Under the pieces are notes generated by a model that was not told the DNA's origin, searched no databases, and saw only the letters and a list, made by a program, of their open reading frames with translations. 64,000 nucleotides of DNA from Escherichia coli (lineage in GTDB: Bacteria > Pseudomonadota > Gammaproteobacteria > Enterobacterales > Enterobacteriaceae), in the NCBI RefSeq assembly GCF_017348835.2, contig NZ_CP072315.1. One strand, 5' to 3'. The position numbers were made by a program, and so were the translations under genes. This document shows, in pieces, positions 44,916 to 46,879 of the stretch. Positions within the stretch are counted from its first letter, which is position 1. Every line of letters begins with the position of its first letter.

Positions 44916-45482
44916 TTGTCTTTTTCTGCAAGAAATATATTTAAGATTCTCTCTTCTTTCTTGATGCAGAAAAGCCCTCTTCATGAAGAAGTATGTGTTC
45001 CTGAAGAAACAACAGCTGGTTTATGGGGCCCTCTCCCTGATTCGCATGTCGTGCTTTTCTTAGATTTCGATGGGGTTTGTCACAGGTGCAAAAATGAAAC
45101 CTTTGAGCGAATGCCATTGGTGGAAAAATTACTGGATAAATGCCCTTCCATGGTGATTGTCATCTCCAGTTCGTGGCGTGAATGTGCCAGTATAACTTAC
45201 CTGAAATCTCTTTTCCGGCTACCTTATAGAGACAAAGTCATAGGTGCTACCGATTCGGTATATTTAAAACCTAATCAGTCAGGTGTGCGGGCTGCTGAGT
45301 GTGAGGACTTTGTATTTTCACATCGAGTTAAAGCATTTATCTGCCTTGATGACGACGAATCATTATTCCCGGTCGGTTATCCACATTTGCAAAAAACCAA
45401 TTATTACACCGGCCTCACCGAATCTGATCTTGCAGCTCTTAACACCAGGTATCATCTGCTTATGAAACGTTGGGCTTCCTGA
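44916..45482 (+). CDS. hypothetical protein with a HAD-like DxDG motif
   Basis: 188-aa ORF; ...VVLFLDFDGVCHR... resembles HAD-hydrolase motif I; weak assignment. Confidence 0.35.
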   Translation: MSFSARNIFKILSSFLMQKSPLHEEVCVPEETTAGLWGPLPDSHVVLFLDFDGVCHRCKNETFERMPLVEKLLDKCPSMVIVISSSWRECASITYLKSLFRLPYRDKVIGATDSVYLKPNQSGVRAAECEDFVFSHRVKAFICLDDDESLFPVGYPHLQKTNYYTGLTESDLAALNTRYHLLMKRWAS

Positions 45483-45589
45483 ATTAAAGTAACTTTTACG
45501 GAGAGCATGCCCGCATTATCAGTTCTATGCTTCTCCATTTCTGCCCCGGGTCAAAGCATTGCACAGTTGGAAGAAAACATGCCGGTCTC

Positions 45590-46879
45590 TTAAGCTTGCT
45601 GCTCAGTTTGGTTCCGGTGCTGAAAAACCTGCCAACGGTGCTTTAGGAATTCAGTATTGATGGGTTTACGCAGCGGCTTAATAAACTCTCCTTGATATGC
45701 CGCTAAATCATGATCTACCGCCAAAGCTTCAGCGAGAATGTTAACCTCCAACGTCACCGGATGAATGGCAATCATGTTTGCGTCGAAAAGATCGTGTATA
45801 TCATGGCGTAAGAGCAACCCATTTGTATAATGGTCTACTCCTCCGTTACGATGCTCCATCAGATGAGCAGCCTCAGTGCGCTGGCGCAGTCTAGAGCCTG
45901 TAATCACACATTGGTCATAACAGTTGTTGCGGACGGCTTCTGCAAATGAGGCCTGATCTGGTCGTGTCTCGACAGTTGTCTTACTACCCTTACGCTTACC
46001 CGGTACAGTAGTTTCATCAGGAATATTCGGCTGAAGCTCCTTTTCTTCTATACCATCAGTCTTCATAGCGACCATAATCGCGGCCGGTGGAGATTTAGGC
46101 TGATCTTCCTGCGATCTTTCGCGGCCACCAACTGGATACCCTAGAAAACCCTCAATGATCTCTAGTGGAGGTAATGTAGCGTTTGAACGTGCATAAATAG
46201 CGAACTCTGCGGCACGTCCGCCGGGAATATATCTACGTACCAGTATTGGAAGAGAGGCTTCTTCATCTGGTTCCTCTTTTTCCGACAGGATTATTCGTTC
46301 GGTGAGACGGGCTGAATTTTTTTTCATTTCACTCAACAGTCTATTGCGTTCTTTTACCTTTCGGTCATTATCCTCCAACATCTTACGATGACTAACCTTA
46401 GCCAGATGGTCTTCCAGTTCCTGTATATATTCGGGATCGATAGTGTCAATTAGACCGAACGCCATCAACCGCTCCCCCCTTGTTTTACAAGATTCTAGCC
46501 GAACGCGAATGTACTCCTTACGCTTGGCCATCAAATGTTCTTTTTGTTTTTTTTCTCGAATTACACGGAGCTGAGTATTGTAATTAGAATAAACGGTTTC
46601 GCTATTCTGCTCTGTCTCTAGAGCAAATTTTTGTAGGTGTTCACGTAGTTTTTTACGGGTATTTTTGGGGGCATGCATTACGGTACGCTCAATGTATGAG
46701 CCTGTGCAGCGTAAAGAAAGTACAGTTTCAGCATGGGAATAACCAGCATTGAGACGATAGCGGGCAATTTTAAGCAAATTATTAAAGTGTGCACCATTAC
46801 ATATACCTAGTTCTTCCAAGACACGACGTTCTCTATCATTAATAGATGGATGGTTAATATCTTTTACTTTGTTTGCCAT
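45590..46879 (-). CDS. HNH-endonuclease-domain protein with a long charged coiled-coil-like N-terminal region
   Basis: 429-aa ORF; C-terminal ...EAAHLMEHRNGGVDHYTNGLLLRHDIHDLFDANMI... fits an HNH nuclease motif; the middle region is rich in E/K/R. Confidence 0.55.
   Translation of the reverse strand: MANKVKDINHPSINDRERRVLEELGICNGAHFNNLLKIARYRLNAGYSHAETVLSLRCTGSYIERTVMHAPKNTRKKLREHLQKFALETEQNSETVYSNYNTQLRVIREKKQKEHLMAKRKEYIRVRLESCKTRGERLMAFGLIDTIDPEYIQELEDHLAKVSHRKMLEDNDRKVKERNRLLSEMKKNSARLTERIILSEKEEPDEEASLPILVRRYIPGGRAAEFAIYARSNATLPPLEIIEGFLGYPVGGRERSQEDQPKSPPAAIMVAMKTDGIEEKELQPNIPDETTVPGKRKGSKTTVETRPDQASFAEAVRNNCYDQCVITGSRLRQRTEAAHLMEHRNGGVDHYTNGLLLRHDIHDLFDANMIAIHPVTLEVNILAEALAVDHDLAAYQGEFIKPLRKPINTEFLKHRWQVFQHRNQTEQQA

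Follow-up and report, generated by a model that had tools for sequence, protein, structure and literature searches.

A solitary HNH_2 nuclease gene carried as exchangeable cargo beside the transfer genes of IncHI2 plasmids: a possible methylase-less restriction-type defence enzyme

Our sequence, structure-prediction and comparative analyses suggest that the 429-aa HNH protein encoded at the edge of the Tra1 transfer region of an IncHI2 resistance plasmid, the replicon that carries both open reading frames considered here, may be a solitary, methylase-less restriction-type (Type IV-like) defence nuclease, a reading to which we give a probability of roughly 0.45. On this reading the plasmid carries the nuclease as cargo, and the enzyme would cut the DNA of incoming phages or rival elements. 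A disordered linker of about 45 residues ties the HNH domain to an N-terminal module made of helices alone, which would supply recognition of DNA or of another target and probably dimerisation. We propose that DNA of the host and of the plasmid itself would escape cleavage because it lacks the recognised feature. Nuclease activity, target and defence role are what we infer for a protein on which literature searches returned no reported experiment, and neither WP_001284752 nor its neighbours were named in any paper found.

Within the window (the whole 64,000-nucleotide stretch of Escherichia coli DNA that was analysed) the HNH gene, which begins with ATG, and a HAD gene, which begins with TTG, converge, their stop codons lying 107 bp apart (Table 1). 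The first-pass annotation had described this pair as a 429-aa protein with a C-terminal HNH motif and a neighbour with a DxDG HAD-like motif lying just outside the T4SS operon, and all of this was borne out: the coordinates hold, Pfam matches HNH_2 and HAD_SAK_2, the HAD protein carries LDFDGV, and trhG ends upstream of the HNH gene and is followed by a terminator. Reading along the minus strand, the end of trhG is followed by the terminator (46996..46966; a 12-bp stem including 6 G-C pairs, then a T-run), the promoter-like site (46961..46933) and the HNH start, an arrangement in which the predicted terminator insulates the cassette from the transfer operon. The promoter is a candidate only, because the scan gave fewer sites in the real than in the shuffled sequence.

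Table 1. Features of the HNH cassette and its flanks (positions in the window)
Feature	Position	Strand	Basis
TrbN/IagB-like lytic transglycosylase (R27 R0130)	44294..44833	+	Pfam SLT; NCBIfam TrbN 7.3e-23
HAD_SAK_2 phosphatase gene (predicted), backbone, 188 aa from TTG	44916..45482	+	Pfam match; R27 R0129 orthologue
Variable cargo cassette: HNH_2 gene, promoter-like site and 3' intergenic spacer	45473..46962	-	Homology break
Solitary HNH_2 endonuclease gene (predicted), 429 aa	45590..46879	-	ORF; Pfam HNH_2
HNH_2 catalytic domain, residues 294-429	45593..46000	-	Conservation; domain model; fold matches
P/E-rich linker, residues 251-293, predicted disordered	46001..46129	-	Low pLDDT; low identity
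Small conserved helical domain, residues 206-250	46130..46264	-	Conservation; predicted helices
Charged (E/K/R-rich) helical region, residues 69-205	46265..46675	-	Composition; predicted helices
Four-helix HTH-like N-terminal domain, residues 1-68	46676..46879	-	Predicted structure
Sigma-70-like promoter candidate, TTCATA-17-TACAAT, inside cassette	46933..46961	-	Consensus scan
Intrinsic terminator of trhG and F operon, shared backbone	46966..46996	-	Stem and T-run
trhG (TraG_N, 1317 aa), last Tra1 F operon gene; right-hand border of the slot	47060..51013	-	

The 429-aa protein corresponds, with at most one residue different, to RefSeq WP_001284752.1, and its gene is annotated in pSTM6-275 as ‘HNH endonuclease signature motif containing protein’. 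The Pfam family HNH_2 (PF13391) is matched above threshold by residues 324-373 (E=1.5e-10, 41.2 bits, cut-off 21), and the catalytic His, structural Asn and metal-binding His of a His-Me finger lie in a beta-beta-alpha fold: H339, N353 and H362 (codons 45863-45865, 45821-45823 and 45794-45796) are invariant across 42 homologues, and the predicted nuclease-domain model (pLDDT 92.4, pTM 0.80) has beta-strands over 335-339 and 354-358, followed by a helix (359-366). In this model the beta-beta-alpha-metal active site is intact. Structure prediction, which the first-pass annotation had proposed as a check, placed the domain closest to the HNH domains of the restriction enzymes VcaM4I (PDB ID 6yex, E=1.1e-4) and TagI (PDB ID 6ghs, E=2.8e-4), the best PDB matches found by Foldseek (probability 1.00, 120-124 of 142 columns aligned, 18-21% identity), with EcoKMcrA next. 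At the sequence level the PDB yielded no match, whether the query was the family profile or the isolated C-terminal domain, and PADLOC returned a generic ‘HNH’ match (E=1.7e-5) and no named defence system.

The remaining N-terminal 290 residues are, as modelled by AlphaFold2 from a shallow 15-sequence alignment, all-helical, and they diverge fast and match no known family. The model of residues 1-68 (pLDDT 88-94) shows four helices, 15-23, 32-44, 49-57 and 60-68, and this stretch has no Pfam match; when nine N-terminal regions were compared with Pfam at E values up to 10, scattered single matches were all that appeared. Long helices are predicted at 72-130 and 149-195, in a stretch where D/E/K/R make up 41% of residues (71-215). 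The suggestion that this is a charged coiled coil thus held for its charge and its long helices but was not supported for the coiled coil: in the heptad test on residues 72-195 the maximum hydrophobic a/d occupancy was 6/8 against 5.4 +/- 0.7 after shuffling, a value that 40% of shuffles reached, and 10% of shuffles reached the observed mean over windows. We accordingly describe residues 72-195, from their composition and predicted helices, as a charged helical region.

Conservation differs sharply along the protein. The charged region (69-205; 22-35% identity outside the relative P0002) and the P/E-rich linker are its two least conserved segments, the linker being 12-35% identical among homologues apart from the 86%-identical P0002 and modelled with pLDDT <50 across residues 252-309. 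Between them, residues 206-250 (predicted helices at 210-217, 220-232 and 238-246) carry the motif L..LVRRYIPGG..F with F226 and F245 invariant, and are 44-76% conserved in relatives beyond P0002, including ones with different N-termini. Pfam, PDB sequence and fold searches of the 290 N-terminal residues found none of the modified-base readers looked for (PUA/SRA/EVE/YTH, SBD, winged helix, DUF3427). A profile of the module searched against 1.84 billion cluster representatives returned 8 proteins, which all belong to this one family, and therefore the module was not found fused to other effectors.

The gene occupies a cassette with sharp ends. L002, the other main IncHI2 lineage, matches our sequence (97.6-97.7% nucleotide identity) up to 45472 and again from 46963, and between these positions it holds a different 1.7-kb cargo. 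The 1.49 kb found here contains a single gene; the remainder of the cassette has no methyltransferase and no other ORF of at least 50 aa, and the 107 bp downstream of the HNH gene hold no ORF. The same slot between the HAD gene and trhG, which is not discussed in an IncHI comparative preprint, is empty in IncHI1 (R27) and in 433 other IncHI2 plasmids is filled, within the same boundaries, by an unrelated HNH and YrhA pair (HNH PF01844, 353 aa; YrhA-family NF038335). The cassette itself is carried by about 520 plasmids and was found in 222 of 5426 complete E. coli genomes (~4%), in both cases at 99% identity or more. Five independent IS insertions were found at the locus, two of them in the HNH gene and two between the gene and its promoter or the backbone, and plasmids in which the gene is disrupted or cut off from its promoter are still typed conjugative. 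The repeated insertions indicate that the HNH gene is dispensable. It is no part of the IncHI Tra1 core, being missing from R27, IncHI1 and the 433 IncHI2 plasmids and having a terminator upstream; together with its candidate transcription signals and the cargo contexts of its relatives, described below, these observations agree with the earlier suggestion of a stand-alone nuclease gene outside the core conjugation functions.

Many of the same features would be expected of a selfish, homing-type free-standing HNH gene that cuts empty or alternative slots and spreads through recombinational repair while giving the plasmid no advantage. The gene is free-standing between conserved genes and has its own candidate promoter, its presence/absence and replacement polymorphism has sharp boundaries, and mismatches in the flanks become denser towards the cassette (as many as 32 in 200 nt, over a background of 0-6), a gradient of the kind that co-conversion tracts predict. 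However, relatives of the gene lie in at least seven different contexts of unrelated cargo rather than beside one conserved target gene, the protein has no NUMOD, IENR1 or other homing DNA-binding module that we could find, its nuclease domain is nearest to those of restriction enzymes, and the cassette is clonal within its lineage. We regard homing as an unlikely explanation.

The neighbouring HAD gene belongs to the conserved IncHI backbone, encodes a predicted phosphatase and is unrelated to the cassette, from which it lies apart except for its last ~10 nt. Pfam HAD_SAK_2 (PF18143) matches residues 46-171 (E=7.1e-20, 72.2 bits, cut-off 27.5) and all four HAD motifs are present (D50/D52, S84-S85, R125 and D145-D146); D50 and D52, which lie in LDFDGV, and S84, S85 and R125 are invariant in homologues, and D145 and D146 are conserved in at least 90% of them. 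RefSeq offers an alternative ATG start at 44964, but the long form from TTG 44916 is favoured because the N-terminal extension is conserved in IncHI1/IncHI2 homologues and M17 is Ile in one homologue (P0050). By synteny its R27 orthologue is R0129, whose expression is induced at 25 °C along with that of R0130 and the tra genes (PMC7366339), and with the transglycosylase gene directly upstream on the same strand the two are probably co-expressed under conjugation-permissive conditions.

This induction of R0129, the position between trhG and the transglycosylase/DsbC accessory genes, and a divergent HAD 3' half that moves with the cassette would fit a conjugation accessory pair, in which the HNH and HAD proteins, as part of the Tra1 region, jointly act on transferred DNA in its processing, entry exclusion or establishment. 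Yet the HAD gene was found in 2015 plasmid records, about 1500 of which lack the 429-aa HNH, while IncHI1 and the 433 IncHI2 plasmids without this HNH are still typed conjugative. The two genes are convergent and not co-transcribed, the terminator separates the HNH gene from trhG, and none of eight other contexts of HNH relatives has a HAD neighbour, the sole exception being an allele in the same IncHI2 slot. The two-gene module proposed in the first-pass annotation therefore does not hold, and a joint role in conjugation is highly improbable.

The relatives of the HNH protein point instead to mobile cargo. All full-length relatives are from Enterobacterales and all are on mobile elements: they adjoin two type I R-M loci (which share only about 29-30% identity), a helicase-PLD protein together with a second HNH_2 gene, and, in one island, AAA_15/21, CcdAB and a KAP NTPase; others lie in integrase islands, one of them beside type I-F cas genes, on a phage-like contig and on a Serratia plasmid. 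This evidence of context is qualitative, as it comes from about nine loci, some of them mutually related. The most distant sequence relatives are Streptomyces proteins that combine PF26345 with PF13391. No methyltransferase is conserved beside the relatives, the nearby HsdM genes belonging to complete type I systems, and no downstream or immunity gene is conserved either, the downstream ORFs being mutually unrelated. In the sister clade (P0004/P0005/P0076) an upstream ORF of about 90 aa is conserved; a search of the window and of the loci compared showed it to be absent from the window, and it is no part of this cassette.

That upstream ORF could be a regulator or antitoxin, and it is among the features that would suit an abortive-infection or addiction toxin, whose N-terminal module would restrain the HNH domain until a phage or stress signal, after which the cell would be killed or all DNA degraded, with no distinction between foreign DNA and its own. 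A solitary nuclease without immunity gene or methylase, a long flexible linker joined to a large helical module that might act as sensor or autoinhibitor, the TA modules (CcdAB, ParE-like, YafQ, HipA) and Abi-like ATPases at related loci, and repeated IS knock-outs that fit a fitness cost are all compatible with such a toxin. In the cassette, however, the gene has no partner ORF, nothing in PADLOC, Pfam or NCBIfam shows it to resemble known toxins of the Abi or TA kind, and the fold is closest to restriction endonucleases directed by sequence or modification, so that we consider a toxin of this kind rather unlikely. A polymorphic toxin/immunity pair was rejected, with no conserved downstream immunity gene and no N-terminal trafficking domain.

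The alternation of unrelated nuclease cargos in one slot of two major IncHI2 lineages would suit rivalry between lineages, and with the slot some 9-10 kb away from the region near mobI that is presumed to hold oriT one could imagine a nuclease expressed early in recipients that destroys host defence loci or rival plasmids. But homologues in chromosomal islands stand beside R-M systems, as is typical of defence rather than counter-defence, and known anti-defence proteins show no similarity. We consider such a competition nuclease very unlikely; nothing was found in support of the ‘anti-defence’ or ‘exclusion’ functions raised in the first-pass annotation.

Within the reading of a defence nuclease, a more specific and speculative proposal concerns the N-terminal module. 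A third plasmid (L015) carries in the same slot an allele with 57% protein identity to our HNH protein, beside a TraG of 96%. Per 100-nt window the backbone is 84-100% identical and the HNH domain mostly ~90%, but from ~45950 to 47060, spanning the N-terminal module and the promoter, identity is only about 50-70%. This break at the domain boundary suggests that the N-terminal module is exchanged as a unit. It may be a target sensor of an unrecognised type, which would read a modification or structure of DNA or else a protein of phage or plasmid origin and be swapped onto a conserved HNH_2 ‘warhead’, and the proteins may form a new Enterobacterales mobile-element family of reprogrammable single-protein nucleases for restriction or defence; we hold this doubtful. 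If it were true, the two dominant IncHI2 lineages would be told apart by rival nuclease cargos that may mediate plasmid-plasmid or plasmid-phage conflict.

Much of the carriage of mcr and ESBL genes falls to IncHI2 plasmids. Restriction of phages or incoming plasmids by the nuclease, should it occur, would affect both the choice of therapeutic phages against strains carrying IncHI2 and which mobile elements can co-reside with these plasmids, and it would bring a new sensor module to the known range of restriction enzymes that work without a methylase. The slot, with one or other of two unrelated nuclease cargos in it, offers a simple marker and a testable hypothesis of competition among IncHI2 lineages; should the protein turn out to lack activity or to be no more than selfish, this would be an ordinary accessory region.

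Among known systems, HAD_SAK_2 is the HAD phosphatase domain found in RNA-repair proteins of the ‘Swiss Army Knife’ kind, with the phosphatase domain of T4 Pnk as an analogue. Unlike those proteins the 188-aa HAD protein stands alone, with no kinase or ligase partner, and is conserved in the backbones of IncHI and related MOBH plasmids beside periplasmic conjugation-accessory genes. The alternative IncHI2 cargo is likewise an HNH nuclease in exactly the same slot, but is unrelated in sequence and on the opposite strand, and its two genes have a toxin/immunity-like layout, with the HNH at the extreme C-terminus followed by a small downstream gene. A CoCoNuT (coiled-coil nuclease tandem, McrBC-linked) was rejected because there are no McrB/McrC neighbours and the heptad signal is insignificant. 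A Type II/IIS R-M system was also rejected, with no adjacent cognate methyltransferase in the cassette or its flanks. The Type IIS enzymes AlwI, HphI and BbrI, placed in group 6 by the His-Me finger classification, do share PF13391 with our protein, along with an N-terminal recognition region that is unpredictable from sequence (PMC5714182), but they have methyltransferases, whereas the cassette has none and none is conserved beside the HNH relatives. The END nucleases (iEndoIII-fused, Type IIS-like) follow the same concept of a lone, methylase-less defence-island nuclease built from a modular sensor and a cleavage domain (PMC12191111), yet identity with them was rejected, as nuclease and sensor domains both differ and there is no sequence relationship.

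The closest parallels are with modification-dependent enzymes. Our protein combines an MDRE-like nuclease domain with the lack of a cognate methyltransferase, and because no reader domain was found the label ‘Type IV’ rests on that nuclease domain, on the absence of a methylase and on genomic context. The N-termini of VcaM4I (EVE-HNH) and TagI (SRA-HNH) are PUA-superfamily readers of modified cytosine, in contrast to the all-helical 290 residues of our protein, which have no reader fold, and unlike McrA-type enzymes it is without a sulfur-binding, SRA or McrA N-terminal domain; matches to the latter enzymes are weak both in fold (PDB ID 6ghc, E=0.07; PDB ID 5zmm, E=0.5) and in the NCBIfam family PT-DNA_restrict (E=0.0034; 16.5 bits, far under the family threshold of 180). 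Even so, EcoKMcrA and the ScoMcrA/SprMcrA-type enzymes are likewise solitary HNH nucleases fused to a specificity domain and found in mobile or island DNA, and VcaM4I and TagI share with the 429-aa protein the C-terminal HNH fold, extensions included (PMC7897488, PMC6765204), and the same single-chain plan, in which an N-terminal sensor (a proposed one in our protein) is joined through a linker to a C-terminal HNH domain and no cognate methyltransferase accompanies the enzyme.

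The 429-aa HNH protein is best explained as a solitary defence nuclease of restriction type, Type IV-like and carried as plasmid cargo, because it combines an intact restriction-type HNH domain with no methylase or immunity gene, its autonomous cassette, which has a promoter-like site of its own, lies in a hot spot where different nuclease cargos alternate, the non-catalytic part of the protein either evolves quickly or is swapped, and its relatives adjoin restriction-modification (R-M) systems on mobile elements. The host plasmid belongs to IncHI2, a well-known plasmid family. 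A nucleotide comparison with plasmid records gave 523 that are at least 99% identical to the region and about a thousand matches in total, with 1005/1013 typed as conjugative (for example pSTM6-275, typed IncHI2A / MOBH / MPF_F). The resistance region occupies window positions 1-38000, has a high GC content (up to 67%) and carries six identical copies of a 723-nt TTG ORF (at 4270, 8232, 22159, 27393, 32748 and 36735), which is probably IS26; umuDC-like genes adjoin the backbone at about 39200-40891.

Features of the locus, of related loci and of the HNH protein
Feature	Position	Strand	Remark
DsbA	40937-41746	-	
Lipoprotein gene, then two small ORFs	between DsbA and DsbC-like		
DsbC-like	43397-44146	-	
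TrbN-like lytic transglycosylase	44294-44833	+	
HAD	44916-45482	+	Pfam HAD_SAK_2
HNH gene	45590-46879	-	Pfam HNH_2
Candidate sigma-70-like promoter site	46961..46933	-	upstream of HNH start
Intrinsic terminator of trhG	46996..46966	-	strong
trhG	47060-51013	-	
trhH, trhF	past trhG		then regulator, mobI, relaxase genes
~90-aa upstream ORF in relatives	L007:7725-7997, L012:7716-7991, L024:7723-7998		
Four-helix HTH-like domain	residues 15-68		predicted, pLDDT about 90
Charged region, two modelled long helices	residues 71-215		after HTH-like domain
Small conserved helical domain	after charged helices		motif L..LVRRYIPGG..F; F226, F245 invariant
P/E-rich linker	between small helical and HNH domains		predicted disordered

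The observations of the first-pass annotation were largely correct apart from the coiled coil. Its two convergent ORFs are present with their stops 107 bp apart, the HNH motif is a Pfam HNH_2 domain (residues 324-373, E=1.5e-10), the DxDG motif of the 188-aa neighbour reads LDFDGV with D50 and D52 (HAD_SAK_2, E=7.1e-20), and the strong terminator past trhG and the sigma-70-like site before the HNH start place the gene just outside the transfer operon. Its interpretation was half right: a stand-alone nuclease that is no core conjugation gene stands, but the pairing with HAD does not, for HAD is a backbone gene and the two do not form a module. HAD is encoded in 2015 plasmid records, and in IncHI1 plasmids including R27 trhG is followed by about 250 bp without an annotated gene, then by HAD and the transglycosylase; a MOBH plasmid of Klebsiella has a 43%-identical HAD within the same DsbA/DsbC/transglycosylase neighbourhood. 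The other HAD motifs (S84-S85, R125, D145-D146) are kept in homologues from IncHI1 and IncHI2 and in more distant ones. In R27, where R0130 is the trbN-like gene and R0135 is dsbA, gene order identifies R0129 as the HAD orthologue; at 25 °C, which permits conjugation, R0129 expression rises 3.8-fold, and R0130 and the tra genes are induced as well (PMC7366339). The HAD start is ambiguous in RefSeq (window 44916-45065; TTG 44916 or ATG 44964); because the N-terminal extension is conserved among aligned homologues and the internal Met is Ile in the homologue P0050, we favour the TTG start, which gives 188 aa, over the 172-aa version in RefSeq. The Klebsiella homologue (L004:4842-5444) has a hydrophobic, membrane-anchor-like N-terminal segment, which hints at a possible membrane association.

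The HNH gene lies on an exchangeable cassette. In L002, from the other large IncHI2 lineage, 97.6-97.7% homology to the window ends at 45472 and restarts at 46963, and the slot between (5682-7259, NZ_CP117751.1; window 45473-46962) encodes on the opposite strand to the HNH gene an unrelated 353-aa protein with a PF01844 HNH domain at its extreme C-terminus, followed by a 168-aa YrhA-family protein (NF038335, E=2e-36), a layout resembling a nuclease toxin-immunity pair. The IncHI2 population is divided almost cleanly between the two cargos: the L002 type is found in 433 plasmids, for the most part from Enterobacter, and the window cassette in about 520, chiefly from E. coli and Salmonella. The latter occurs in 222/5426 complete E. 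coli genomes, with 221/225 places on plasmids and 223/224 records at least 99% identical. Mismatches between the two lineages number 0-6 per 200 nt elsewhere but reach as many as 32 in the flanks beside the cassette, where they cluster in HAD's 3' half and in the final ~100 nt of trhG with its terminator (window 44716-45472, 46963-47162), and the HAD protein is only 86% identical between backbones that are otherwise ~98% identical; such a rise would be expected if a diverged donor had supplied the replacement through recombination. In a third plasmid, the IncHI2-like L015 (logan SRR33456483_122), the slot holds P0003, a mosaic allele with 57% identity. The L015 backbone shows 84-100% nucleotide identity to the window per 100-nt segment and the HNH_2-coding part mostly about 90%, and identity falls to 50-70% over about 45950-47060 (compared with L015:8001-9209), spanning linker, N-terminal module and candidate promoter, a break that matches the boundary between the domains (residue ~294, nt 46000).

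The locus has also received at least five independent IS insertions (L019-L023: H1, H3, H4, H14, H16; window 44834-47059, 2.2 kb): IS1 between the transglycosylase and HAD, ISVsa5 and ISKpn26 directly upstream of the HNH gene, and, inside it, IS5 (common to about ten Salmonella plasmids) and one IS3-family element. All of these plasmids are still typed conjugative. This dispensability, together with insulation from the tra operon, the absence of partner genes and the contexts of relatives, makes four other readings of the protein less likely, namely a conjugation accessory, a selfish homing-type element, an Abi or toxic nuclease, and an anti-defence or competition nuclease.

Full-length relatives (29-57% identity) occur only in Enterobacterales, and each belongs to the variable cargo that mobile elements carry. 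Two Salmonella alleles, P0007 and P0008, share 78% identity and each directly adjoins a complete type I R-M system; the HsdR and HsdM proteins of these two systems are just about 29-30% identical to each other (L009:320-7558, L016:1337-7621), which suggests that R-M cargo may turn over at a hot spot beside a kept nuclease gene. The P0007 locus also has a helicase-PLD protein, a second HNH_2 gene, Fic and HipA, and that of P0008 a NERD/helicase protein. Other relatives lie in an Enterobacter island with an AAA_15/21 ATPase, CcdAB and a KAP NTPase, in integrase-bounded islands of Pectobacterium and of another host, the latter island adjoined by type I-F cas genes, on a phage-like contig, and between two rep genes of a Serratia plasmid. 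No conserved downstream gene was found among them. In the P0004/P0005/P0076 clade a conserved ~90-aa ORF (41-80% identity) abuts the HNH_2 start codon; it matches nothing in Pfam or NCBIfam, does not occur in the window, and may be a regulator or partner. Phage genomes, and many plasmid proteins of other lengths, have just the HNH_2 domain in common with the HNH protein. A 202-aa IncHI2 paralogue between merR and an hns-family gene (L005:4797-5405, NZ_CP099761.1) shares 44% identity with the C-terminal domain, and its match to a phosphorothioate-DNA restriction endonuclease model is weak; the paralogue is a second tblastn match in many plasmids of the window's lineage, outside the 64-kb window.

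When 15 relatives are aligned, a conserved block covers K295 to W416 in the C-terminal part of the protein, and H339, N353 and H362 are invariant in it, as they are in 42 more diverse sequences. Beyond P0002, which is 86% identical, the relatives are best conserved in the HNH domain (30-79%) and the small helical domain (44-76%), and least so in the charged helices (22-35%) and linker (12-35%). The charged region, previously described as a likely coiled coil, is indeed 41% charged and modelled as long helices, but a coiled coil is unproven: in a simple heptad test the a/d hydrophobic periodicity was no greater than in shuffled sequence. No Pfam family, PDB sequence or PDB fold matches the first 250 residues, and a profile of them found only 8 representatives among 1.84 billion proteins, every one of the same family.

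Structure prediction, which had been proposed as a check, gave a confident HNH domain-only model (pLDDT 92.4, pTM 0.80) whose best PDB fold matches are the HNH domains of VcaM4I (E=1.1e-4) and TagI (E=2.8e-4), followed by EcoKMcrA, with the Cas9 HNH, Cap5 HNH and ScoMcrA lower. VcaM4I and TagI are modification-dependent restriction enzymes, and the modelled likeness is limited to their HNH domains. We do not claim membership of the Type IV class, because the reader domain that defines it was looked for in the HNH protein and not found. The protein is an uncharacterised form of an already known kind of enzyme in a familiar plasmid family, and no major surprise. The Type IIS enzymes AlwI, HphI and BbrI belong to the same Pfam HNH_2, and their recognition domains are likewise not predictable from sequence (PMC5714182). 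The recently described END nucleases, a family unrelated to the HNH protein, demonstrate that nucleases lacking a methylase and using unconventional sensors can be real defence systems.
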